Shown piece by piece: positions 3,709 through 46,022 of a DNA stretch of 46,022 bases. The notes beneath the pieces are model-generated. The model made no database searches. It saw only the letters and a program-made list of their open reading frames with translations, and was not told where the DNA came from. The stretch comes from Candidatus Delongbacteria bacterium (GTDB lineage: Bacteria > UBA4055): the NCBI GenBank assembly GCA_016937995.1, contig JAFGVM010000088.1, forward strand, positions 1 through 46,022, read 5' to 3'. Made by a program: the position numbers and the translations under genes. The number at the start of each line of letters is the position of its first letter. Position 1 is the stretch's first letter.

Positions 3709-5592
3709 CTACATACCTTCTAACATTTTTTTATACTTCACTTTATGTTTTTCAGGTATTTCTTTGTCATTGATCTTTATAACATCATCATCAATAAATA
3801 TCTTAAGTTCTTCATTATTTTTACTGATGATGCCATCTTTAACAAGTTCTTCCCTTATGTTATCTGTATCGATCTTTTCGATCAATTTTATTTTGCTAAG
3901 ATCAATATCTTTTTTAGCATGCTTTACAGCAAGTTTTAAAGCTTTTGCCCTTTCTTTTTGCTCAAGTTTTTGAGCTTTAGCCTCTGCTTTAGCAGCTTTT
4001 ACTTCAGCTTTTACCTTATATTCTTCAGACTTTAGTTTCTCAATTGCTTCCTTTACTTTTGCTTTAGTTTCAGCTTTCTGTTCATCAGTCAGATCTTTTT
4101 TATCTATCTCCTTCAAGGCTTCTTCCAGAGATTTAGCGATTTCGTCAAAATCAATATCAATGTCTATGTCTATATCCATGTCTATATCATCTAATTCGGA
4201 TAGCTCATCCAACTCAGATAGATCGGCAAAATCATCACCATTAATAAAGATCATTTTCTTGCCATTATTTTTTACAATATGCTTCTCTCCATCCTTATTT
4301 ATCCACACATTTTCATCTCCATCGGTTGTAACTGATATTGTTTTTGTACTATCTCCATCCTGTGTTACTAAAACCTCTACTCTTTTCTCAATTAAATCAC
4401 CAGTATTTTTTGTTTCAATTATTTTTTTTATGATCTTGCCATCATCAGTGGTTGTAATAAAGATCTGTTTATCCATATCCTCATTACCTGCATCTGTTAC
4501 ATATACATCCATTTTAACATCTTCCCCATCAGAGGATTTCTTTACGATAATTACATTAGCTTCTTCAGTTTTAACCTCATCTTTTGCACCGGCAAACAAC
4601 GAACAACCTGTGATAAATGTTAATGCTAATGTCATTACGATAATTGATGCTATGAAACCTGTATATGAATTCTTCATATCTTTCTCCTTTCCGATAATTC
4701 TTTTGATCCTGCTCAGAAGATCACCTTTGTTTATTGCTGCCATGATAGGTTTAGGTACATTCCCCTGCATTTTTTGCAGATTATAAAGTCCTTTAGCCAG
4801 GTTTGCACAATCTGAACAATGCTTAAGTGCAAGGTCATCACAGCAGTTCTCTCTTTCTGTTCTGATCTGTTTTGATATAAAATATATCGCGGGATTGAAA
4901 AAATAAATGATCTCAATAACTGACTGAATGAGATTGTGTAAAAAGTCATTTCTTATTATGTGAGCAAGTTCATGACTGATGATTGCTTCGATCTGATCAT
5001 TCGGTATCTTAGTTACCAGCCCTAACGGCAGTAAAATGACCGGTTTAAAATGCCCAATGACCACAGGAACTTTGATCAGTGCTGATTCAAAAATATCTAC
5101 TGATCTCTGCACTCCCATTTTTTCAGCTATGGATCTGAATCTATATAAAAGTACTTCGTCTATCTTTGTATATTCTTTTTTCTTGATAGTATTTGCGTAA
5201 TAGAGATCTAATCCGAACTTTATCAGGAATATCATCACACCTGTAAGCCAGAGTATAAATATCAATTCTGCATATTCTTCAATAATATAAAAATAACTAC
5301 CGACCCCGGAAGTACCTATCATATCAACATTAGCATCTGTCATAGATAATGTTGTTGCTTGACCTTTTGAAATACCAGTGATACTTGTATAAGGATTGGA
5401 AAAATAAATAAATGTTGATATTGATACCGTTAAAACAATAAATAATGATAAAAAAGATAATACATACTTTGACCTGCTCGTTAATTTCAATCCCGCAATT
5501 GAAATATATAATAAAATAGCTATAAGTGGTGCCTGCCACAGTGAATGTAAAAGAGTATTCACCATTGAAGTTATAATACTTTCTGTGTTCAT
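3709..5592 (-). CDS. BlaR1-like M56 metallopeptidase with extracytoplasmic C-terminal region
   Basis: HSLWQ, HELAH zinc motif and RENCCD; directly downstream of a BlaI-family gene. Confidence 0.9.
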   Translation of the reverse strand: MNTESIITSMVNTLLHSLWQAPLIAILLYISIAGLKLTSRSKYVLSFLSLFIVLTVSISTFIYFSNPYTSITGISKGQATTLSMTDANVDMIGTSGVGSYFYIIEEYAELIFILWLTGVMIFLIKFGLDLYYANTIKKKEYTKIDEVLLYRFRSIAEKMGVQRSVDIFESALIKVPVVIGHFKPVILLPLGLVTKIPNDQIEAIISHELAHIIRNDFLHNLIQSVIEIIYFFNPAIYFISKQIRTERENCCDDLALKHCSDCANLAKGLYNLQKMQGNVPKPIMAAINKGDLLSRIKRIIGKEKDMKNSYTGFIASIIVMTLALTFITGCSLFAGAKDEVKTEEANVIIVKKSSDGEDVKMDVYVTDAGNEDMDKQIFITTTDDGKIIKKIIETKNTGDLIEKRVEVLVTQDGDSTKTISVTTDGDENVWINKDGEKHIVKNNGKKMIFINGDDFADLSELDELSELDDIDMDIDIDIDIDFDEIAKSLEEALKEIDKKDLTDEQKAETKAKVKEAIEKLKSEEYKVKAEVKAAKAEAKAQKLEQKERAKALKLAVKHAKKDIDLSKIKLIEKIDTDNIREELVKDGIISKNNEELKIFIDDDVIKINDKEIPEKHKVKYKKMLEGM

Positions 5593-5645
5593 AATAATAC
5601 CTTCATATATAAATTCTGCCGTTCTTAATTATAAGTTAATAAATA

Positions 5646-6014
5646 TTAATTGCCTTTATCCATCTCATCCAAAAGTTCCCTTATCTGATCAAGCTCCTCC
5701 TTTGAGGCATCATGATTACCCAGTGCCTGCATTACAAGTTTCATTGCTGAACCGTTGTATGTTGATTCAATAAATTTATCCAATAGATCATTTTTCGTTT
5801 CTTCTTCTGTTACATCTGCTTTATAGACATGACTCCTTCCTAATGATTGTCTTGATATGAATTTTTTTTCGAACATTATCTGCATCGTTTTTAAAGTAGT
5901 AGTATATCCTGATTCTTTTACCTTGTTTATTTCTTCATTTACTTCTTTTACTGTCATTTCTCCGTTCTTCCAGAGTATCTGAAGTATTTCAAGTTCACCT
6001 GCTGATGGTTTCAT
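5646..6014 (-). CDS. BlaI/MecI/CopY-family repressor
   Basis: ELEILQILW..TVKEV..YTTTLKTMQIM..RSHVY; start taken at MKPS after AAGGGA. Confidence 0.9.
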   Translation of the reverse strand: MKPSAGELEILQILWKNGEMTVKEVNEEINKVKESGYTTTLKTMQIMFEKKFISRQSLGRSHVYKADVTEEETKNDLLDKFIESTYNGSAMKLVMQALGNHDASKEELDQIRELLDEMDKGN

Positions 6015-15507: not shown

Positions 15508-15542
15508 CCACTTACCACTTTAAACTTATCACTTACCACTAA
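15508..15542. repeat. Degenerate heptamer tandem repeat (CACTTAY family)
   Basis: ccactta ccacttt aaactta tcactta ccactaa between nqrE and nqrF. Confidence 0.6.
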
Positions 15543-33166: not shown

Positions 33167-33421
33167 TTATTGGGTTATTCCATACATTTCTTTTTTTATG
33201 ATAAGCATATGTATTTGGTCTCTACTGCTTAAAGGAAATCGAATTTGATAATCTAAAAACATTGAATATTTATCATCTTCCAATTTATAAGCCATGTTTT
33301 TCATTATTAGAAAATTCCCTGAAATAATACCTGATAATGTACACTCATTAACAAATGATTTAGTAATTGCATGAGTAGATGTTTTATATATCTCTTTCGG
33401 TTTAAGCTCATAATAATCTTC
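33167..33421 (-). pseudogene. Possible 3' remnant of a truncated gene
   Basis: 84 stop-free codons (EDYYELKPKEIY...KEMYGITQ) with no 5' start, overlapping the tail of the ORF6N gene in another frame. Confidence 0.35.
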
Positions 33422-34302
33422 TTACCAAAAACCAAGGCGAGCATCTTTAATGCATCAATCTCAAACTTAGAAAAACCAAATAATTTCTTCCCAAGATCTT
33501 TCAGCGAAGCCCCAAAATGATATACAATTTCATCATCAATTATAATAAACCTATCATGCGATTTCTTAAATACTTTAATTTCAATTGCAAAAAACTCCTT
33601 TTCAAATTTATCTATATCCAGTTTAAGCTGTTTTGAGATTGATTTCGTTAATATCTTGACTTTCACATTCTTGTTTTTCTTAGTCAAATGTGTTAAAACA
33701 GTATCATCAATATAGTTATCTATTATAACAATGGAACTTTTAGCACTTCTAAAAAGATCTGATACAAATTTATAGGCTTTAAATATTTGCCCTTCAAAGA
33801 ATATACCTTGCTTTGGAATGTTATCGTTACTCTCTAGAGCAGAGAAGACTTTATCGAACTTTTGATCGGTTTCTAATTTATAATGCTCCAAGCGACTGAT
33901 TCTATTGAACACTTCTGAATTAATAATTGAATAGCTCCTCATCTCTATAAAAGTTTTAATGATGATTATACTGATCCTAATTGCAGTTTCACTTCTCAAT
34001 ACAGCAGACAACATAGCTATTCCTTCCTGAGTAAATACATAAGGAAGGTATTTTCGATGTTTACCCCTTGTGTTCTCTAAGGTGACAAATTGGCACCTTA
34101 AAGATTCGTACTCACTTTCAGTTATTTGAAAACCGAATTCTTTAGGGAATCTTTCGATATTTCTTTTAACTACTCGATTAAGATATTTAACTTCAACCCC
34201 ATATAGTTCTGCTAAATCACTATCAGGCATTACCTGCTGACCACGAATTGTAAATATTTTCTCTTTTACTGATATTCCTTCAAATTTCTCTATTTCTTTC
34301 AT
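33307..34302 (-). CDS. ORF6N-domain DNA-binding protein with C-terminal PLD-like domain
   Basis: IRGQQVM.D.DLAELYGVE..VKRN.ERFP..FTQEGIAMLS; IIDNY..SHDRFIIID..GASLKDLG. Confidence 0.85.
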   Translation of the reverse strand: MKEIEKFEGISVKEKIFTIRGQQVMPDSDLAELYGVEVKYLNRVVKRNIERFPKEFGFQITESEYESLRCQFVTLENTRGKHRKYLPYVFTQEGIAMLSAVLRSETAIRISIIIIKTFIEMRSYSIINSEVFNRISRLEHYKLETDQKFDKVFSALESNDNIPKQGIFFEGQIFKAYKFVSDLFRSAKSSIVIIDNYIDDTVLTHLTKKNKNVKVKILTKSISKQLKLDIDKFEKEFFAIEIKVFKKSHDRFIIIDDEIVYHFGASLKDLGKKLFGFSKFEIDALKMLALVFGKKIIMSLNRKRYIKHLLMQLLNHLLMSVHYQVLFQGIF

Positions 34303-34482: not shown

Positions 34483-34607
34483 TAAAGGTTTAAATGTAAA
34501 GAAGTTCAAGGAAGAATATCTTTCTTTCAATAAGGAGCTTAGTTTACCTAAGTGACTTTGAAGAAAAATGTATTCTAACGCAGAAATTCAAAGCATTTAA
34601 CCTTTAA
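34483..34607. repeat. Long imperfect hairpin element, copy 1
   Basis: Core AAGGAGCTTAG-N5-CTAAGTGACTT shared with 38333-38453; nested paired arms. Confidence 0.7.
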
Positions 34608-36363
34608 ATTGTTTGTCGATGAAATACGCTGCCTTCTTTCCTGCAGCTATAGCTCTTATCGCATCATCTGGTCCAGTCTCACAATCTCCACCAGCATAGA
34701 TAGTATCCTGATTTGACTTAAGCGTATCAGTATTAACTTCAAACGTACCCCATCTTGTGAGCTTAATATCAAGATCTTTCATGATCTCAGGTTCAACCTT
34801 TTGACCAACAGCCATAATACAAGTATCAGCTATGATAGTATACTCAGAACCTTTAACAGGCTCAGGTCTTCTTCTACCACTCTTATCCGGCTCACCAAGT
34901 TCCATCTTAATACATTCAATAGCCAAGCGACCGTCTTTCTTCTCTATCTTAACAGGTGAAGTCAGTATCTGAATATCAACACCTTCTTCTTTAGCTTCAA
35001 TGATCTCGATCTCATCAGCAGGCATTTCTTTCTCAGTTCTTCTATACACAACCTTAACATCACTGCCAAGTCTAACAGATGAACGGCAACAATCCATAGC
35101 AGTATTACCACCACCAACGACAACAACATCTTTACCAAGATCAGGTCTCTCTCCCTTACCTATCTTCTCAAGGAATCCAACACCTGAAAGAACACCTTCA
35201 GTATCCAATCCTTCAATAGGCATTTCTGTACCAAGCTGAGCTCCGATACAAACAAATACAGCATCATTCTCTTTATGAATATCTTCAAGCATGATATCTT
35301 TACCAACTTTGGTGTTGTACTTAACCTCAACATCCTGCCTGATTATATAATCAATTTCTCTCTGAAGAACATCAGCTGGAAGCCTGTAATCAGGGATACC
35401 CCATTTAAGCATTCCACCAAGCTTATCATGCATTTCATAGATAACAGCATCATGACCTAAAGTTCTTAAATAATATGCAGCAGTAAGTCCTGCAGGACCT
35501 CCACCGATTATACCTACCTTCTTACCTGAAGCAGGTTTCGGTTTAAGATCGATTATCTCATCTTTTCTATCGTAAGTCTTGTCTCCGATATATCTCTTCA
35601 GCCATCTGATAGCAATAGGTTTACCTTCATGACCAACTGCACAAACAGTCTCACATTTTGCTGTACAGATCCTGCCACAGGCTTCAACCATTGGATTAGT
35701 CTGGAACATGATCCTGAGACCTTCGTCAAGCTTTCCATCTCTAATAGCTTTAATATATTGTGGTATATCCATATGTGTAGGACATGCTTGAACACAGATA
35801 CCGCAGTCTAAGCAACGGTTGGCTTCAATTATAGCTTGCTCATCTGTATAACCATCTTGAAATTCATCAAAAGTATTTTTTCTTTCATCGGCTTCCTGCT
35901 CCGGCATTTTCTCTCTTTCTCCGTTTACAAGCCAGGATTCATCTCCCCTTTTGTAACCTTTCTCAGATTCATTTGCCCAAGGTAATTCATCAATACCCGG
36001 AACGAATCTATAAACTTCAGGATCCTCGGAAAGCCAAGTGTAATCATTAGACATTCCAAGGGATGTAGTAGGACAGATATCCACACATAGAGCACACCAG
36101 CAGCATCTACCGTAATCGATCAAAGGCTTAAGACCGCTATTTCCCTTTGTAGCAACAAGTTCAGCTACTTCTACCATATCAATAGCTTCATTCTGGCAAA
36201 TTTCCTCGCAGGAACCGCAACCGATACATTTTTCAATATCGTTGGTATGAAAACCTCTGTAAAGATCAGCTGCTTTTCTGTTCACAGGATCCTTAATTGT
36301 ATATGGTTTCTCAAATGCTCTTTTCCAAGCATAGAATGGTGATATAATATCTTTTAAACTCAT
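34597..36363 (-). CDS. MbxN/NuoI-like 2x[4Fe-4S] domain fused to GltD-like FAD/NADPH oxidoreductase
   Basis: CIGCGSCEEIC, CCWCALCVDICP; CLDCGIC..CP, CGRIC..CE..C; GGGPAG; GGGNTAMD. Confidence 0.88.
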   Translation of the reverse strand: MSLKDIISPFYAWKRAFEKPYTIKDPVNRKAADLYRGFHTNDIEKCIGCGSCEEICQNEAIDMVEVAELVATKGNSGLKPLIDYGRCCWCALCVDICPTTSLGMSNDYTWLSEDPEVYRFVPGIDELPWANESEKGYKRGDESWLVNGEREKMPEQEADERKNTFDEFQDGYTDEQAIIEANRCLDCGICVQACPTHMDIPQYIKAIRDGKLDEGLRIMFQTNPMVEACGRICTAKCETVCAVGHEGKPIAIRWLKRYIGDKTYDRKDEIIDLKPKPASGKKVGIIGGGPAGLTAAYYLRTLGHDAVIYEMHDKLGGMLKWGIPDYRLPADVLQREIDYIIRQDVEVKYNTKVGKDIMLEDIHKENDAVFVCIGAQLGTEMPIEGLDTEGVLSGVGFLEKIGKGERPDLGKDVVVVGGGNTAMDCCRSSVRLGSDVKVVYRRTEKEMPADEIEIIEAKEEGVDIQILTSPVKIEKKDGRLAIECIKMELGEPDKSGRRRPEPVKGSEYTIIADTCIMAVGQKVEPEIMKDLDIKLTRWGTFEVNTDTLKSNQDTIYAGGDCETGPDDAIRAIAAGKKAAYFIDKQFKG

Positions 36364-36381
36364 TTTAATCCTCTTTTATAA

Positions 36382-36447
36382 AATTAGAAGTAAGAAATTA
36401 GAAGTCAGAGGTTTAGCTGACCACTAACCACTAATCACTGACCACTA
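36382..36447. repeat. Heptamer tandem repeats (TTAGAAG-type and CCACTAA-type)
   Basis: aattagaagtaagaaattagaagtcagaggttt followed by ccactaa ccactaa tcactga ccacta. Confidence 0.65.
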
Positions 36448-37590
36448 TCTCTCTATCTCCGGTGGACATGTCTGTAATGACACCATTAATCCGAATATGT
36501 CGGCATTGGTAACACCTTCTGCCATCTTCTCCAGTAAAGCCATTGCGTGAGTATAACTTGCACCACGCACATGAACTCTTCTAGGATATTCACTACCATC
36601 TGAGACCATGTAATATCCATATTCCCCTCTACCTGACTCAGCTTTAACATAAGTTTCACCTGCTGGAACTTTCCAATGAAGTATATCAGGTATCTTAGTT
36701 CGAACTGAACCTGTTCTTGGCATTTTCGCTAATATCTGTCTAATAAGGTCAACTGAAAGAAGAACTTCCTTCTTTCTTAGAACAGTTCTTTCATAAACAT
36801 CACCTACAGTGCCTGTAGTTGGCTCGAAATCCAACTGATCGTAGATCAGATATGGATGATCCTTTCTTACATCATATTTTACACCTGAAGCTCTTGCAGT
36901 TGTACCTGTAACACCAAAAGGTTTGATCCATTCTTTTGGAAGAACTCCAAGACCAACCGCTCTTGATTTAAATACATAATTGTTAAACATTACTTTATCA
37001 ATATCATACATCAACTTTTCAGTCTTGACCAGCACCTTTTCCAGTCTGTCCTCAAAACCTGCAGGAGGTTCATGCCTTACTCCACCTGGTAACATATACA
37101 TGTGATATATTCTTCCACCTGTTAGTTCTTCGAAAAGATCAAGTATAAGATCTCTGTGTGCAACAGACCATTGCCCTATAGTGCCAAGTCCGAAAGAACC
37201 TGCCTGGCCACCTATACCCATTATTGTAGCACCTAATCTTGCCATTTCAAGGTTCAAAGCTCTTAACCACTTAGCTCTCTCAGGTATCTCTATACCTGCA
37301 AGATCTTCAGCTGCAGTAGCAAAAAGATATTCGTTAGTATCAGGCTCTGGAACACAGATCCTGCATACGATCGGAAAACATTTGATGTACTTTCTTCTTT
37401 CCATCAGTTTCTCAAAACCTCTATGAAGATAACCGACGTGTGTATTAAGTTGCATTATCTCGTCACCTTCAAGCAATATCTCAAGAGCCATATTACCTGT
37501 TACTCCCGGATGCTGAGGTCCCTGCCATATCTTGACGTACTTTCCGGACTTAAGGTCCAGATCTTTAGTATCATTCCAAATTGGTCGCAT
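36445..37590 (-). CDS. MbxL/NuoD-like subunit (no complete NiFe motifs)
   Basis: GPQHP, GYLHRGFEK, CRIC, C-terminus QTCPPEIER. Confidence 0.88.
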   Translation of the reverse strand: MRPIWNDTKDLDLKSGKYVKIWQGPQHPGVTGNMALEILLEGDEIMQLNTHVGYLHRGFEKLMERRKYIKCFPIVCRICVPEPDTNEYLFATAAEDLAGIEIPERAKWLRALNLEMARLGATIMGIGGQAGSFGLGTIGQWSVAHRDLILDLFEELTGGRIYHMYMLPGGVRHEPPAGFEDRLEKVLVKTEKLMYDIDKVMFNNYVFKSRAVGLGVLPKEWIKPFGVTGTTARASGVKYDVRKDHPYLIYDQLDFEPTTGTVGDVYERTVLRKKEVLLSVDLIRQILAKMPRTGSVRTKIPDILHWKVPAGETYVKAESGRGEYGYYMVSDGSEYPRRVHVRGASYTHAMALLEKMAEGVTNADIFGLMVSLQTCPPEIER

Positions 37591-37625
37591 AATATCTTCT
37601 TATGTTGATTTATATTATTTTTATT

Positions 37626-37663
37626 TGTCATTGCGAGGATTTTCATAAAATCCGTGGCAATCT
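37626..37663 (+). repeat. GTCA/CGTC-type REP-like palindrome
   Basis: TGTCATTGCGAGGATTTT-CAT-AAAATCCGTGGCAATCT. Confidence 0.7.
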
Positions 37664-37679
37664 TATTTTATGGTTTTAC

Positions 37680-37703
37680 GGGTGAATAATGATTCACCCC
37701 TGC
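37680..37703 (-). repeat. GTAG-like REP palindrome
   Basis: Minus strand GCAG-GGGTGAAT-CATT-ATTCACCC. Confidence 0.6.
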
Positions 37704-37709
37704 AATCCA

Positions 37710-38285
37710 TTATTTTGAATTATCACGAAATACTTTCGTGATGCTCTTCTTTACTTCTTCTTCTACAGGATACATCTTCTCTGCCATTTGTTCCGTTGGA
37801 TCCTTCTTGGTTCTTCCTTCTCTAGGGAAGTAAGTTTCTTCAGAGTATTTCTTAGTATCGAAATCTTTTCTCATCGGAGGAATAGTATCCCAGCCTTCGA
37901 GTACGAATGGATCATCAACTCTTGGACATCCCGGAAAATCTATCCCGAACATTTCTTTCAATTCCCTTTCATAGACCCTTGCAGCAGCCCATAGCTCATT
38001 GATACTGGTCATTGTAGGGTTTTCTCTGTCGATATATACTCTGATACAGGCATCATTATTCAGGTCATAGTTACGGAGCAAATATGTCAATTGGAACTTG
38101 CCGTCTTCTATGTAATCTACACATGATATCATTGTCAGCTGATCATACTTCTCAAATTCCTTCAAATACAAGATTACACCTTCAATATCGATCTTCTCTG
38201 CTGTAAAGAATACCTGATTCGATTTATGCTCGTTGATGTCTTTGATATTGAATTTTGAAGCCAGTCTTTCGATCATATCTTTCAT
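37710..38285 (-). CDS. MbxK/NuoC-like subunit
   Basis: ISCVDY, YERELKEMFGIDF.G, PMRKDF. Confidence 0.9.
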   Translation of the reverse strand: MKDMIERLASKFNIKDINEHKSNQVFFTAEKIDIEGVILYLKEFEKYDQLTMISCVDYIEDGKFQLTYLLRNYDLNNDACIRVYIDRENPTMTSINELWAAARVYERELKEMFGIDFPGCPRVDDPFVLEGWDTIPPMRKDFDTKKYSEETYFPREGRTKKDPTEQMAEKMYPVEEEVKKSITKVFRDNSK

Positions 38286-38332
38286 TTTTTATACCTAATT
38301 TAATTAATTTCTATATTTTAACTGCAACTGTA

Positions 38333-38453
38333 GAAAGTGCATTAAATAAAGGAGTTCAAGAAAGAGTTGTTTATTTCGAAAAGGAGCTTAGATTAACTAA
38401 GTGACTTAAGAAAAAACGACTCTGACGCCGAAATCCGAAATTTAATGTGCTTT
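38333..38453. repeat. Long imperfect hairpin element, copy 2
   Basis: GGAGTTCAAG..AAGGAGCTTAG-ATTAA-CTAAGTGACTT..GACGCCGAAATCC with outer arms AAAGTGCATTAAAT/ATTTAATGTGCTTT. Confidence 0.7.
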
Positions 38454-39078
38454 ACCAGTTGTAGTCAGGCATATTCCAGTCTTTGATCACCTTCTTCTGA
38501 TTCTCCTTATACCACTGAAAATCCCTTGCATACTTATTCGCACCTTCAGCTCTTCCCTCTTTGATGATCTCCTTCATTTTTTTAAAACCTGCTATGAGAG
38601 ATTCCGGTCTAGGCATACAACCTGCTACATACACATCAACCGGTAAATACTGATCAAGTCTGTTGATAGTGTTATAACTGTCAAAGTACATACCACCGTT
38701 GATAGTACAGCTTCCAAGTCCCATTACGAATTTCGGGTTCTGCATCTGCTCATAAGACCTTACTATTCTCTTCAAAGTCTTGACCGAAGCATATCCGCTT
38801 ATTATAAATAAACTGGATTGTCTCGGGGTCGGTCTCGGAGCCATTCCAAATCTTGAAATATCATATCGTGCAGTGTATAAAGGTCTCATTTCTATAGCTC
38901 CACAACCTGTACCAAAAGCCAGCACCCACATAGAATTAGCCTGAGCCCAGTTATAGAATTTTTGAACTATTTTATTGTTTATAGGCGCAACTTCCTTTGG
39001 TAAAGCTTCACAGAAAAATTCATTCTGTAATTCCTTTGCTTTATCGTCCGGTTTACTGTCCTGACCTATTGTAATCAT
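38452..39078 (-). CDS. MbxJ/NuoB-like Fe-S subunit
   Basis: GTGCGAIE, TPRQ, YEQMQNPK, GSC..GG, VDVYVAGCMPRPE. Confidence 0.9.
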   Translation of the reverse strand: MITIGQDSKPDDKAKELQNEFFCEALPKEVAPINNKIVQKFYNWAQANSMWVLAFGTGCGAIEMRPLYTARYDISRFGMAPRPTPRQSSLFIISGYASVKTLKRIVRSYEQMQNPKFVMGLGSCTINGGMYFDSYNTINRLDQYLPVDVYVAGCMPRPESLIAGFKKMKEIIKEGRAEGANKYARDFQWYKENQKKVIKDWNMPDYNW

Positions 39079-39098
39079 TATATATCTCCAGTTTTAAT

Positions 39099-39129
39099 TT
39101 AGAAATTAGAAGTTAGAAGTCAGAGGTTT
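39099..39129. repeat. Heptamer tandem repeat (TTAGAAG-type)
   Basis: ttagaaa ttagaag ttagaag tcagagg ttt; same ending as the 36382 block. Confidence 0.65.
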
Positions 39130-39151
39130 GTTTTCTAATTCTCCATTGTTC

Positions 39152-40066
39152 TTAGAATGAATACATTAACACTGCTATTATACCGATTATCGTTGGTATC
39201 TTTAAGAAATATCTTACTGAATTTTCCAGAGTGAACCTTGGATTAACAACACCCATCAACACTGTTGTCATATAAAGTAGGAAAGTCTTTATTACCATCT
39301 CAGGTATACTTGTAGCTCCACCGAAGAACAGGTTCATGAATAATACCAGTTTAGCAGATGCGAAAAATGCTCTGTTCGCCTGCATATATCCAAGAAATGT
39401 TGATTGAAATTCGGTCGGAGGACCGATAGGGATCTCCTGTGGTGCAATATGAAGATCGAACGGAGAGTGCATCATCATACCTAAGAATGCTAACATCCCC
39501 GCTATAGTAGCGACCGGATTCGTTATCATTGTCCAGTTCATAAATCCACCTTGCTGGGCAGCAACTATCTCAGTAATTGAAAGTGTCTGATATTGAGCAG
39601 CAAGTGCTATGATAGCCAATGCAAATGGAACTTCAGATACTGTTACCTGTGCCAGTCCTCTCATAATACCCATTGGTGAGTATGGATGTCCACTTTCCGC
39701 AGCTCCGAGAGCCATACCCAGCTGTCCGAAGAATATGAAGTAAACAACTAACAGCAGGTCACCCGAGAAACTGAAATTCTGTAGCCATACAGATCCGAAT
39801 ACTGCAGGAATAAATAAGTATAAGCCAACACCACCTACAAGTCTGAAGACTGGGCCTAAGTAGAACATGATACCATGAGATATTGCCGTTCTCATTGAAA
39901 ATACTTTAACCAGGTTGATATAAGGCTGCCATACAGGTGGTCCGAATCTACCGTGAGCTCTTGCAACTATTTTCATCACTAGACCTCTTAAAACCATCCC
40001 GTAGTTGAAGATGAGTAGTAGTGACAGAATTGCGTAAATTATTCTTTGTATAGTAAAATTTTCCAT
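39152..40066 (-). CDS. MbxM/NuoH-like membrane subunit
   Basis: R.GPP.WQP, G.MR...Q..SE, PFD..A..EI..GP.TE. Confidence 0.88.
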   Translation of the reverse strand: MENFTIQRIIYAILSLLLIFNYGMVLRGLVMKIVARAHGRFGPPVWQPYINLVKVFSMRTAISHGIMFYLGPVFRLVGGVGLYLFIPAVFGSVWLQNFSFSGDLLLVVYFIFFGQLGMALGAAESGHPYSPMGIMRGLAQVTVSEVPFALAIIALAAQYQTLSITEIVAAQQGGFMNWTMITNPVATIAGMLAFLGMMMHSPFDLHIAPQEIPIGPPTEFQSTFLGYMQANRAFFASAKLVLFMNLFFGGATSIPEMVIKTFLLYMTTVLMGVVNPRFTLENSVRYFLKIPTIIGIIAVLMYSF

Positions 40067-43000: not shown

Positions 43001-43215
43001 ATTGAAATTGGAGGTTTAAAACCTGCAGTAAATATCATTACTGATACTTGATCACCGATCAAAAAACCAGTCAACCATTGATAACTTATTGCACACACCG
43101 AAATCAAAGCTGCAAAGAATATTGCTCCGGTCAGTTTTGTTCCACCTTTGCTGAAAGAAGGCAATAGAAAACCTACTCCGAGTAAAATTGCTACTATATA
43201 TATTGGATTTACCAT
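40066..43215 (-). CDS. Double MrpD/MbxH-like antiporter-module protein
   Basis: Two proton-antiporter domains: FVFLEI..YSSVAQMG..GLPPFPGFWGKW and FAWEIM..YSSMGQVG..GVPPLTGFGAKW. Confidence 0.88.
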   Translation of the reverse strand: MVNPIYIVAILLGVGFLLPSFSKGGTKLTGAIFFAALISVCAISYQWLTGFLIGDQVSVMIFTAGFKPPISINLQMGMFEAIFTGSINFMALFGAIYMFRQMAETGTRSFVLFLLMVLGLNGLVMTRDIFNLFVFLEITSIATYSLIGMDLKLKSLSAGFKYMIAGGIASVFLLLGIIMLYSVTGTLNIDEMVKIIPAVANIKILTIGLFLVLFSLIIEMKQFPSNGWAIDAYEGVAPGLTGLVAAIGTGGVFFAIYKTFPMMNKDLLSMTAVIGMLTFFVSNLMGLKQKNPRRILGYSSVAQMGLILSVGAWGYRTGAADEIFMLVLIPLFINHFFAKAGLFWIAGIVKSEKYKNWGMIKNNKIILIPFIILVLALIGLPPFPGFWGKWNLVLFWGATKNFTWIWFLLAGSLIEAVYMLRWLGYALKGEDTEEVKFDMTVSKNLAVFLVTSLLLTIAVYYSWTNEAIAPIYYLPFTVGLALFYLPFLPAKIKGFISMSGIAVYAYYFLPDQAGFNLFFNTIFLGGSFFLIIATMHSKGKRVGFFPLLMLMIGSLVAMVEAKNTLQFFFAWEIMTVSSYFLIMRGKKAQKAALRYVIFSLGGAFLILIGFGYAFSEMHHKIVLPISLLGAIEENKSIVFILISIGFLVKIAGIGLHTWIGSAYKKAEDDTTAFLSSILSKAGIFGFVILILIMGIPKIGKIDIAYVLGWIGAITAISGTMIAIFQEDAKKLLAYSSMGQVGYIILAMATMSGLGWTAGMYQVVNHMLIKGILFLAIAGVIYRTGTSKMYKMGGLIKKMPLSYTAVMFGIIAISGVPPLTGFGAKWLLYEALIEKGWYLQTGVAFFASTVAFLYCFRLIHTIFLGQAKTEFKDVKEAPVWFIIPQYIFIIIIMAFSMKPKLLLDMITFAVKPIFGESLSWVGDTAFSSLGYWNGFVVMNIVMVLFIGLTVLLLIKAPKVQKVKQFNIVFAGERPETPELTHFAYQFYKPYYRALGFLVNPRVKTFWKNVSNSAHTIGDSLRKIYTGNGQTYAFWILMYGLILFFITVGVK

Positions 43216-43250
43216 TTTAATTCCTTGTAATCGTTAATTGGATTTACCAT
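43209..43250 (-). other. 13-codon chimeric mini-ORF from a 35-nt junction duplication
   Basis: MVNPINDYKELKW*, overlapping the mnhC end and the mnhD start. Confidence 0.7.
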
Positions 43251-43606
43251 TTTAGTTCCTTGTAATCATTAATTGACAATGATCTCTTCTGTTGATATAA
43301 TCTTATTACAAAGGTCAGCATCAATGCATTCACTGCCACTCCGATAACGATCGCAGTTAATACTAATGCCTGGGGTACCGGATCAACTATTAAAGAAGAT
43401 ACTTTACTAAGCTCTACTGCTGAATCCAGGATCGGAGCTGTTCTGCCTTCAATAAATCCGAAAGATACCATAACAAGCTGAACACCGGTCTCCACTATTG
43501 CTAAACCAAGAATTATTTTGATCATATTCTTCTGTGTCAACATACCCCAGAATCCTATAATTATAAGGGCAAATCCTATTATATGAACTATCGTGGTTAT
43601 ATTCAT
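43244..43606 (-). CDS. mnhC: MnhC/MbxG subunit
   Basis: DPVPQALVLTAIVIG. Confidence 0.92.
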   Translation of the reverse strand: MNITTIVHIIGFALIIIGFWGMLTQKNMIKIILGLAIVETGVQLVMVSFGFIEGRTAPILDSAVELSKVSSLIVDPVPQALVLTAIVIGVAVNALMLTFVIRLYQQKRSLSINDYKELKW

Positions 43607-44307
43607 TCTAAGTCTCCCTTCATATTGTCTAATATACTCGCTAATTCAGTGCCTACTTTCAATCCAATCAATGTATAAATAACAGGTATTGCTCCTGCAC
43701 TTAAAATACTGCCAAAAGTACCAAGAGATAATATTCTGTTATCCAGAAAATTATCTGCTCCGATCATAACGAGACCTAATATCCCGATAAGAACATAAGC
43801 AAATCCTGATAATGATTCTAACCAGCCGAATACATTATGATTGATCTTATAAGATGTGTCTGCAAGAAATAGAAGCATTATTGCAGAAGCTATTACTGCA
43901 CCACCCTGAAAACCTCCACCGGGAGTTAAATGTCCATTTAAAAATATATATATTCCAAAAATAATTATCATTGGAGCAAGCAGTGTAGATCCTGTAAGTA
44001 AAATTTCACTGGATTCTCTTTTCTTTTTACCCGGATCAATTTTCTTCTTCTTTCTTCTTAACAGAACGGCAATTCCTGTAGCTGCTATGAATAATACTGC
44101 AACCTCACCAAGTGTATCTAATCCTCTATATGTTACTATTATAGCCGTTACAATATTCTGAGCTCCAAGTTCCTGATTCCCGCTTCTTTCGGCATATTCT
44201 TTTCCTACTCCTTTTAAAGCAGTAGCTTCTTCAATATTGTTCACTATAATAAAAAATACAAAAACAAACCCCAGTAATAATATAGCTGAGAAAATTCTTT
44301 TAATCAT
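43603..44307 (-). CDS. mnhB: MnhB/MbxE-F subunit
   Basis: NIVTAI..YRGLDTLGE, GHLTPGGGFQGG; start taken at MIKR. Confidence 0.9.
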   Translation of the reverse strand: MIKRIFSAILLLGFVFVFFIIVNNIEEATALKGVGKEYAERSGNQELGAQNIVTAIIVTYRGLDTLGEVAVLFIAATGIAVLLRRKKKKIDPGKKKRESSEILLTGSTLLAPMIIIFGIYIFLNGHLTPGGGFQGGAVIASAIMLLFLADTSYKINHNVFGWLESLSGFAYVLIGILGLVMIGADNFLDNRILSLGTFGSILSAGAIPVIYTLIGLKVGTELASILDNMKGDLE

Positions 44308-44557
44308 TTTCTTCCTCCACATCTTTTGTTTTGTGAAGTGCATATAAAAATACCAAAGTAGATAATCCTGCACCTATAGCAGCTTCTGTCATTGCAACAT
44401 CAGGTGCCTGCATCAGTAGATACAATATACTTGCGAATAAACTGACTACTCCTACTGCGATGATCGAAGATATCAGATCCTTCACATGCATTGCTAATAC
44501 AGCCGCAATGATCATTGCTAAACCCATCAGTATGAAAATGCCCTGTTGTAATTCCAT
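44300..44557 (-). CDS. MbxD/DUF4040-like subunit
   Basis: APDVAMTEAAIG. Confidence 0.9.
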   Translation of the reverse strand: MELQQGIFILMGLAMIIAAVLAMHVKDLISSIIAVGVVSLFASILYLLMQAPDVAMTEAAIGAGLSTLVFLYALHKTKDVEEEND

Positions 44558-44598
44558 TAGTCTACCTCCAGTATGAAGATACCTTGTGCTAATTCCAT
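44557..44598 (-). other. 13-codon chimeric mini-ORF from a 41-nt junction duplication
   Basis: MELAQGIFILEVD*, with TAATG overlaps at both ends. Confidence 0.7.
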
Positions 44599-44978
44599 TA
44601 GTCTACCTCCACTTCAGTATTCTCATTTAGCTTGTCAGTCACCACTACGTCGATATTTTCTTTCTCTTTCAGCTTATCAGTTACAGAACCTTTCGTTAGA
44701 GGAATTCCTTTGAAGTGTGCTGCTCTTGCTAAAGCATGACTTGAAATAGGATTTGTTAAAGCTATGAACATTATTATTACCAGTATCTGACCGATCCATT
44801 CATAGTGACAGATGCCTATTCCTAATAATGTTAAAATTGTTCCTAAAGTCGTTGCTTTTGTTCCTGCCTGCATTCTGTTATAAAGATCCGGCATTCTAAA
44901 TACTCCCAAAGCTCCAAGAAATAAGAATATTGAACCGATTAATGTTATTATTGATCCTAAAATTCTGTACCATTCCAT
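44598..44978 (-). CDS. mnhG: MnhG/MbxC subunit
   Basis: RMPDLYNRMQA.TKATTLG, TNPISSHALARA. Confidence 0.92.
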   Translation of the reverse strand: MEWYRILGSIITLIGSIFLFLGALGVFRMPDLYNRMQAGTKATTLGTILTLLGIGICHYEWIGQILVIIMFIALTNPISSHALARAAHFKGIPLTKGSVTDKLKEKENIDVVVTDKLNENTEVEVD

Positions 44979-44979
44979 T

Positions 44980-45249
44980 TTACAGCCCTCCTTCTAAATG
45001 ACGGGCTACTGCAACTACACCAATGAAACTCAAGATCGCATAGACCATTCCTACATCCAAAAATATTATTCTGGATGACATACAGGCAATTAGTACTATA
45101 AGTGATATAGAAATGACAGTAAATGTATCTAACGCAACAACTCTGTCAGCCATACTTGGACCTTTTATAAGTCGTAATGTTGCCAATATTATCCCTGCCG
45201 ATACAAAATAGGTGGATACTTGGAACAATATCTCAGGTAAATTAGTCAA
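44980..45249 (-). CDS. mnhF: MnhF/MbxB subunit
   Basis: TTG start; GPSMADRVVALD. Confidence 0.92.
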   Translation of the reverse strand: MTNLPEILFQVSTYFVSAGIILATLRLIKGPSMADRVVALDTFTVISISLIVLIACMSSRIIFLDVGMVYAILSFIGVVAVARHLEGGL

Positions 45250-45730
45250 AGATCACCTCCAAATATTTTTCAAAACTTGCTACGATTTTCTCTGTTGCAG
45301 CCTTTTCATCTTTATTCGTTACATCTATCCAGTGTATATATAATGTATCTCCGTCTATATCCACTGTTAAAGTGCCGGGAGTCAATGTTATTGAATTTGC
45401 CAATACCATTCTACCCATTGCTGTTTTCAATTTTGTTTTCACTGTAACAATTCCGGGATTTATACGGATAACAGGTTTTATTACTCTTAAGGCTACATCC
45501 AAATTGGCTTTAATGATCTCAATGAATAAATAAAATATATACCAGATGGAATAAATTATTTTTTTAGGGTTAAGTATTGGTGATCTGAGATAATTTCTAA
45601 AAACAACACTTACAATTAATGAGAAACCAAACATAATCATAATATTATTCAGATCTTTTGTCCCTGTCCAAATAAAATAAAACAGTGTGAAGGCGATCGT
45701 TGAAAACAGTATTTTTAAAGTTTTATCCAT
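45242..45730 (-). CDS. mnhE: MnhE/MbxA subunit
   Basis: KANLDVA, LANSITLTPGTLTVD. Confidence 0.92.
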   Translation of the reverse strand: MDKTLKILFSTIAFTLFYFIWTGTKDLNNIMIMFGFSLIVSVVFRNYLRSPILNPKKIIYSIWYIFYLFIEIIKANLDVALRVIKPVIRINPGIVTVKTKLKTAMGRMVLANSITLTPGTLTVDIDGDTLYIHWIDVTNKDEKAATEKIVASFEKYLEVIFD

Positions 45731-45897: not shown

Positions 45898-46022
45898 CAC
45901 TTATCACTTATCACTTACCACTTATCACTTACCACTTATCACTTACCACTTATCACTTACCACTTATCACTTATCACTTATCACTTATCACTTATCACTT
46001 ATCACTTATCACTTATCACTTA
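45898..46022. repeat. Heptamer tandem array (CACTTAY)n, about 18 units, runs off the window
   Basis: Directly visible CACTTAT/CACTTAC repeats. Confidence 0.97.

Follow-up and report, generated by a model that had tools for sequence, protein, structure and literature searches.

Duplicated gene junctions with 13-codon chimeric reading frames that may relay translational coupling in a Delongbacteria-like Mrp/Mbx-type operon

The membrane part of an Mrp/Mbx-type operon occupies the final 7 kb, on the minus strand, of a 46,022-nt stretch of DNA (hereafter the window, by which we mean the whole stretch that was analysed); the contig is metagenome-assembled and its protein relatives, of which the closest are 84-98% identical, carry the label Candidatus Delongbacteria. 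We found that two junctions of this operon, the one between mrpG and the DUF4040/MbhD gene and the one between mnhC and the fused mrpD-like gene, are tandemly duplicated, and that each duplication creates a 13-codon open reading frame (ORF) composed of the ends of the neighbouring genes. These mini-ORFs are probably frame-selected relay ORFs that were created by the junction duplications and that would carry translational coupling from one gene to the next. Most likely they are tolerated scars and not purpose-built regulators, with peptides that have no role of their own. It is from the anatomy of the two junctions that we infer both the translation of the mini-ORFs and the relay of coupling through them.

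That anatomy had been described in a first-pass annotation of the window, which reported junction duplications, chimeric 13-codon ORFs, and stop/start overlaps kept on both sides; repeat alignment and translation agree with it (coordinates are given in Table 1). At the mrpG/DUF4040 border (duplication J2) the copy at 44569-44609 comes first in the direction of transcription and the copy at 44528-44568 comes second, and each holds a GGAGGT Shine-Dalgarno (SD) motif, a TAATG, and 10 codons of the DUF4040 type. Mini-ORF 2, which lies at this border, consists of the first 10 DUF4040/MbhD codons followed by the last 3 MrpG codons (...EVEVD). It is flanked by one TAATG formed with the mrpG stop, where the mrpG TAA (44600-44598) has one base in common with the mini-ORF ATG, and by a second TAATG formed with the DUF4040 start. 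At the mnhC/mrpD border (duplication J1) each copy holds an SD-like AAGGA, an ATGGTAA, 8 codons of the mnhC tail, and 5 codons of the mrpD head. Here mini-ORF 1 consists of the first 5 MrpD-like codons (MVNPIYIV...) followed by the last 8 MnhC codons (...NDYKELKW), with one ATGGTAA joining it to the mnhC stop and another joining it to the mrpD-like start. The GGAGGT lies 7 nt before each ATG of J2 and the AAGGA lies 6 nt before each ATG of J1. Both mini-ORFs show two features of a termination-reinitiation coupled pair, namely a stop/start overlap together with an SD motif within the upstream ORF, and the annotation's alternative, that they are natural bicistronic spacers, agrees with their architecture (a leader SD, a second SD in the 3′ end of the leader, and a stop overlapping a start). 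With the mini-ORFs included, the spacing of the genes from mrpE to nuoH reads -8, +1, -1, -1, -8, -4, -7, -7, and -1 nt, a chain that is unbroken.

The periods of the two duplications, 41 and 35 nt, are both 2 mod 3, and it is for this reason that each mini-ORF stop is in register. Specifically, a period of 2 mod 3 shifts the downstream frame into the upstream frame, so that the mini-ORF ends on the duplicated stop over the true start. Apart from J1 and J2, no array in the window has a period greater than 18 (Tandem Repeats Finder, 35 rows). The core of each occurs exactly twice in the window when up to 3 mismatches are allowed, at least 2 matches being obtained in 0 of 100 shuffles, and the units of J1 and J2 are unrelated in sequence to each other. 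A dispersed repeat or mobile element was ruled out because the cores are found only at the local copies in the window, and a search of the window against Rfam gave 0 matches at gathering scores. An internal promoter or terminator was also considered as the reason for the spacers and rejected, a pattern scan having given only consensus-level matches and no terminator at either junction. We note that a perfect sigma-70-type consensus (TTGACA, 17 nt, TATAAT, with a TG) is present on the plus strand at 43273-43301, antisense to the operon and adjoining J1; by our estimate about 0.1 perfect sites of this type are expected per window.

In the scheme that we favour, a ribosome ending mrpG (or mnhC) would reinitiate at once on the mini-ORF, read its 13 codons, and terminate atop the real start, before which stands a second copy of the SD, such that coupling would be relayed over a gap of 35-41 nt that would otherwise be untranslated. 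In experiments cited in one paper, reinitiation in Escherichia coli fell by 80-90% or was lost with a 38-nt spacer, and in Haloferax it was lost with a spacer of 22-23 nt (PMC10666635). Given these published effects of spacers, the coupling of DUF4040 to mrpG, and likewise that of mrpD to mnhC, would not survive 35-41 nt of untranslated sequence. With duplications of other lengths, ribosomes would pass over the true start in the wrong frame, and such duplications would not be retained. The duplications probably originated by replication slippage or by unequal recombination at short microhomology, of which we find CAAT at the unit borders of J1 and TG at J2 (the novel joints on the minus strand are …ATACTG|GAGG… and …CCAAT|TAAC…), and recombination between diverged alleles probably added to the differences that the copies now show.

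Comparison with other operons of this family indicates that at least one of the two duplications is natural. We collected 80 related loci (823 kb) by one scan of a genome collection, the query being an alignment built from 27 MnhB relatives out of the 120 that were listed, and the Mrp/Mbx-type gene order is common to most of them. The spacing is -8, -7, -4, or -1 at 346 of 509 operon junctions in these loci (gene starts being heuristic), so tight coupling is the rule in this operon family. At the junctions equivalent to J1 and J2, Tandem Repeats Finder detected no long-period tandem repeat in the 80 loci, but analysis of the junction spacings picked out L001. The closest related locus (L001) comes from a different Delongbacteria species (protein identity of 92% for F, 89% for G, 96% for DUF4040, and 93% for C), and here the mrpG stop and the DUF4040 start are separated by 40 nt, filled by a 13-codon ORF (MKLEQRAFTVGVD, followed by a stop) with TAATG on both sides. 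When the L001 mini-ORF is compared with a duplicate of the L001 flanks, 31 of 41 positions agree, whereas shuffles matched at 16.3 positions on average and at 25 at most, with at least 31 matches in 0 of 5000. In period (41 nt) and in joint, this duplication is the same as J2. The annotation had suggested a check of the junctions against the operons of relatives; because L001 carries this decayed duplicate of the same period and joint, J2 is not an assembly error. Judged by this comparison the mrpG/DUF4040 duplication is natural, and it is old in L001.

The other junctions of the close relatives are single-copy. This is true of the mnhC/mrpD junction of L001, and in L002, L003, and L004 Tandem Repeats Finder identified no long-period repeat at either junction. 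In these three loci the spacing between mrpG and DUF4040 is -1 and a single-copy ATGGTAA is present at mnhC/mrpD, with a spacing of -7 at the latter junction in L003 and L004 (the mrpD-like gene of L002 was missed by the ORF scan). Mini-ORF 2 of the window and the mini-ORF of L001 have 7 of 13 residues in common, and the first base of codon 4 is G in both (GCA in the window, GAA in L001). Neither A nor E occurs at residue 4 in any of the 15 real DUF4040 relatives that were fetched (of 120 listed), and Ala4 of mini-ORF 2 is therefore not a known real allele. The common G at codon 4 hints that the two mini-ORFs may come from one event, in which case the window copy would be oddly well preserved. 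The L001 copy has accumulated 10-12 substitutions, yet it retains its start, frame, and stop as well as an SD-like GGGGGT. In a simulation, 12-17% of copies remained an intact relay after 10-12 random substitutions, so that the retention hints mildly that selection may have kept the frame of L001 open.

Several observations weigh against the relay account as we have given it. The frame condition is weak as evidence, since a period of 2 mod 3 is expected in 1 of 3 events. In-place duplication followed by neutral drift fits the window copies poorly (a binomial estimate gives about 0.002 to 0.1, depending on polarisation), and the mini-ORF copies in the window have changed in one codon only, as against 10-12 positions in L001. 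Furthermore, two events lie within about 1.3-1.4 kb of each other in the window, as compared with none at these junctions in the 823 kb of related loci, which points to a cause common to both, one that plain slippage would not provide.

A broader view, which we consider less likely than not, is that tightly coupled operons repeatedly take up insertions through junction duplication, with selection acting as a filter that lets through only those insertions or duplications that form a relay. On this view relays would persist across speciation (as in the window and L001), would recur independently (as in L012/L015, L013, and L029), and would correspond in nature to bicistronic designs. If it is true, relay ORFs may have been exploited to reset subunit ratios, and they would provide a ready source of micro-genes made from the ends of neighbouring genes. 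The independent cases come from gammaproteobacterial versions of the operon. L012 and L015 have a 44-nt insert after mrpG and a 15-codon ORF (5957-6004 in both), L013 has a 50-nt insert after mrpG and a 17-codon ORF (5951-6004), and in L029 a 9-codon ORF is found at DUF4040/mrpG (5570-5599) with the downstream ATG directly after the ORF stop; the ORFs of L012, L015, and L013 have ATGA or GTGA overlaps. L012 and L015 form one clade and L013 belongs to a separate lineage. When L012 and L015 are compared, they are identical at 32 of 48 positions in the ORF versus 126 of 150 and 139 of 150 positions in the flanks. Two considerations speak against taking these ORFs as further products of the same process: a duplication origin was tried for each and rejected, there being no signal relative to shuffles (p = 0.93, 0.53, 0.29, and 0.74), and open frames are common by chance in GC-rich DNA.

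The first-pass annotation had favoured a different origin, in which the DUF4040-MnhB-MnhC block was replaced by a diverged allele. Either joints at offset microhomologies, as the annotation proposed, would have made both duplications at once, or ordinary recombination would have ended inside duplications that already existed, and we consider such a replacement unlikely. What stands of the claim is that the differences between copies are allele-like and that the two events lie close together. Of the 7 differences between copies, 5 are synonymous third-position changes in the frame of the real gene and 2 fall in one codon, which is non-synonymous (GCA in the mini-ORF, CAA in the real gene). Among codons for conserved amino acids 5 of 15 differ between the copies, a proportion that matches the divergence of window and L001 orthologues in this operon (0.35-0.46, with mrpE alone at 0.30). 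The flank-side copies carry the states of the L001 real genes (CAA GGT ATC; AAC…TTA), whereas the block-side copies carry CAG GGC (as in L002), ATT, AAT, and CTA. Allele-like remnants of this kind at the joints are expected of a swapped block, although a chimeric assembly or later recombination would look alike. In addition, the duplications bracket exactly these three genes, with nothing similar elsewhere in the window or in the 80 loci, and a mosaic history is known in the group from the MrpD-like gene of L001. In that gene (L001 5847-8990) residues 1-200 match the window as well as those of L003 and L004 do, and an identity profile and a tree both place the part from residue 201 to the end outside the Delongbacteria clade, which indicates a probable internal recombination breakpoint and hence a mosaic operon.

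The remainder of the block-swap claim found no support. The annotation had proposed comparing the phylogenies of the block with those of the flanking genes, and these turned out to be congruent. Specifically, in partitioned trees built for 9 of the 80 loci by a quick method with no mixture model, we found no conflict between block and flanks, the window being sister to L001 for F+G (support 64), for DUF4040+B+C (93), and for MrpD residues 1-200 (77). Nor did counts of synonymous codons reveal a step at the joints: synonymous codons differ between the window and L001 at 64 of 176 positions in F+G and at 145 of 343 in the block (p = 0.22), and the corresponding comparison of flanks with block gave p = 0.92 against L002 and p = 0.70 against L003. 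Ratios of informative sites shift within MnhB, inside the block, and show no shift at the joints. Sliding identity and the MrpD identity profile revealed no block-specific history in the window, the sole clear discordance being the L001 MrpD-like gene. A relative on a 44,217-nt contig, whose MrpG and MnhB are 95% and 86% identical to those of the window (89% and 71% for L001), diverges proportionately in the two proteins. Nei-Gojobori synonymous divergence (dS) from the relatives is about 0.75-1.4 and saturated, these relatives being too distant to reveal a swap between close alleles. Two further points count against a replacement. Because L001 has the mrpG/DUF4040 duplication without that of J1, there is no need for the two to have come about together, and it would be rare for two illegitimate joints to form with the frame kept at each. 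Nevertheless, the copy differences and the closeness of the two events favour some allelic exchange, or a contig that is chimeric between strains, as a contributor to what is seen.

That the duplications themselves are an artefact of assembly appears to us distinctly improbable. In this case a chimera of two strains would have been made by joining a 1.3-kb variant segment with untrimmed overlaps of 41 and 35 nt. The contig is indeed metagenome-assembled, the copy differences resemble differences between strains or alleles, and both joints flank one short segment. However, L001, which is an independent assembly from another species, has the same period and joint in a far more decayed state. Both joints preserve the frame, moreover, which has a chance of about 1 in 9 by frame alone and less when the equal length of 13 codons is considered, and graph-based assemblers are not expected to leave unequal, imperfect overlaps.

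That the mini-ORFs are adaptive tuners, kept by selection and setting the flux of ribosomes into DUF4040-MnhB-MnhC and the MrpD-like gene so as to adjust subunit ratios, would agree with their bicistronic-design architecture, with the retention of start, frame, stop, and GGGGGT in L001, with the 13-codon length of all three mini-ORFs (two in the window and one in L001), and with the recurrence of relay ORFs after mrpG in unrelated lineages, but it seems very improbable given that L002, L003, and L004 are single-copy at both junctions, that the peptide is not conserved between the window and L001, and that survival of the L001 open frame is, under the neutral simulation, not significant alone.

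A third duplication is found close to J2, in the tail of mrpG itself. This in-frame duplication is older than the two at the junctions; with it counted, a stretch of 1.5 kb contains three that are each about 40 nt long. MrpG is 125-126 amino acids (aa) long in the window and its three closest relatives, as compared with 113-114 aa in the other relatives that were fetched and 114 aa in L001. One relative of MrpG (P0124, 125 aa) ends in ...NESTGRMD where the window protein ends in ...NENTEVEVD, which suggests that a further rearrangement may have taken place at the mrpG junction.

The operon that contains these duplications reads, on the minus strand, mrpE-F-G, DUF4040/MbhD, MnhB, MnhC, the fused MrpD-like gene, NuoH-, NuoB-, NuoC-, and NuoD-like genes, and a NuoI-GltD fusion. 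All 12 of the 12 operon proteins that were scanned match Pfam above cutoff, and the gene content is that of an Mrp/Mbx-type operon. The start of the MnhB gene was corrected to the ATG at 44307, which gives an 8-nt overlap with the DUF4040 stop. The double MrpD/NuoN-like subunit is present in most of the related loci. In the membrane-subunit half of the operon the overlaps follow one another without a break, while the soluble-arm half (nuoH/B/C/D/I-gltD, 36364-39151) has untranslated spacers of about 73-166 nt. The second gene fusion of the operon, at 34597-36363 on the minus strand, joins a NuoI-like 2x[4Fe-4S] domain to a GltD/NfnB-like NAD(P)H flavoprotein in a protein of 588 aa. The gene just downstream of the operon, at 33307-34302 on the minus strand, carries an ORF6N domain along with a weak PLD-like match and looks phage- or defence-related. 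Arrays of heptamers are present in intergenic spacers. CACTTAT is repeated 17.9 times at 45898-46022 and continues past the contig end, and shorter arrays of CCACTTA, AAATTAG/ACCACTA, and TTAGAAG are found at 15508-15540, 36381-36447, and 39099-39128; two of the heptamer arrays fall between genes of the nuo-like half of the operon.

Table 1 Positions of the duplications, the mini-ORFs, and the genes of the membrane part of the operon in the window.
Feature	Position	Strand	Description
Junction duplication J2, 2 x 41 nt	44528..44609	-	mrpG/DUF4040 border; 88% identity, 5 mismatches
Junction duplication J1, 2 x 35 nt	43202..43271	-	mnhC/mrpD border; copies 43202-43236 and 43237-43271; 94% identity, 2 mismatches
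Mini-ORF 2, MELAQGIFILEVD	44557..44598	-	13 codons + stop (42 nt); from translation
Mini-ORF 1, MVNPINDYKELKW	43209..43250	-	13 codons + stop (42 nt); from translation
In-frame 42-nt tandem duplication in mrpG tail, TDKLKEKENIDVVV / TDKLNENTEVEVD	44598..44681	-	24/36 matches at shift 42 versus 9-19 at other shifts
mrpE-like	45242..45730	-	First operon gene; Pfam MNHE, E=2.8e-40; 8-nt overlap with mrpF
mrpF-like	44980..45249	-	Pfam MrpF_PhaF, E=8.9e-17
mrpG-like, 126 aa	44598..44978	-	Pfam PhaG_MnhG_YufB, E=7.2e-26; NCBIfam NF009314, 131.7 bits versus cutoff of 102
MbhD/DUF4040, 85 aa	44300..44557	-	Pfam MbhD, E=1.5e-21; N-terminus MELQQGIFIL...
MbhE+MnhB-type gene, 234 aa	43603..44307	-	Pfam MnhB + MbhE; 100% match to P0001 (234 aa)
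mnhC / NuoK-like, 120 aa	43244..43606	-	Pfam Oxidored_q2, E=3.1e-23; ATGA overlap with MnhB
Fused double MrpD/NuoN-like antiporter subunit, 1049 aa	40066..43215	-	Pfam Proton_antipo_M, 2 matched stretches, E=1.7e-89; NCBIfam matches to both halves
NuoH-like	39152..40066	-	Pfam NADHdh, E=1.4e-38; 1-nt overlap with preceding gene

The arrangement that we describe is reminiscent of several known systems without being identical to any of them. It shares with termination-reinitiation coupling the feature that every joint here, those of the mini-ORFs included, is a -1 or -7 overlap with an SD in the upstream frame, and operons for the subunits of membrane complexes are a class enriched in stop/start overlaps (PMC10666635). 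The difference is the extra 13-codon cistron, which would call for two successive reinitiations and not one. According to a review that cites Supply et al. 1997, the MIRU repeats of mycobacteria insert at gene starts and bring an internal ORF that is coupled (PMC12548453); short ORFs, the review also states, can deliver ribosomes to a coupled gene (PMC12548453). The likeness to MIRUs lies in a short repeat at an operon junction, with an internal ORF coupled to its neighbour and with expression barely disturbed, and such a repeat with its coupled ORF is what we find here. MIRUs, in contrast, are described there as a dispersed, apparently mobile family with a sequence of its own, whereas the units here are copies of the flanking gene ends; within the 46-kb window they form no dispersed family and have no sequence independent of their flanks. 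The organisms differ too, MIRUs being mycobacterial and the operon here Delongbacteria-like.

The mini-ORFs also resemble an engineered arrangement. In its original form the synthetic bicistronic design (BCD) begins with a short leader ORF that is provided with an SD; another SD lies in the 3′ end of the leader, and the leader stop overlaps the start of the gene. This architecture of leader, second SD, and overlapping stop and start (TAATG at J2) is that of the mini-ORFs, although the resemblance is functional only: BCD cassettes are engineered, while the mini-ORFs are natural and born of duplication, their leader is coupled to an upstream gene and does not head the transcript, and the overlap at J1 is ATGGTAA (-7). 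BCD cassettes are covered in the same review (PMC12548453, citing Sun et al. 2021). A natural case is the iraD leader ORF of E. coli, for which translation of a short ORF is reported to govern initiation of the next gene (PMC5574718). Leader ORFs of the iraD type, as presented there, are regulatory and lie in 5′ leaders, whereas the mini-ORFs here are internal to the operon and derived from the neighbouring genes. Among the titles and abstracts that our searches on translational coupling, intercistronic short ORFs, and MIRUs brought up, we found no report of self-derived junction duplications, which is weak evidence of their absence from the literature.

For the curation of genomes, the case of J2 means that, in a contig assembled from a metagenome, a junction duplication with diverged copies need not be an error of assembly. 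Stop/start overlaps are considered necessary for the coupled synthesis of complex subunits in controlled ratios, and in experiments coupling is abolished by gaps of 20-40 nt. For the biology of coupled operons, the duplications that give rise to the mini-ORFs represent a possible natural way in which a gap that would break coupling is bridged by a short ORF that is translated in the right frame. Should relay ORFs be under selection, they would offer a simple and testable rule by which to tell the insertions that a coupled operon can tolerate. They would also set a precedent in nature for bicistronic expression designs, and they would make up a class of tiny ORFs that escape gene callers altogether.

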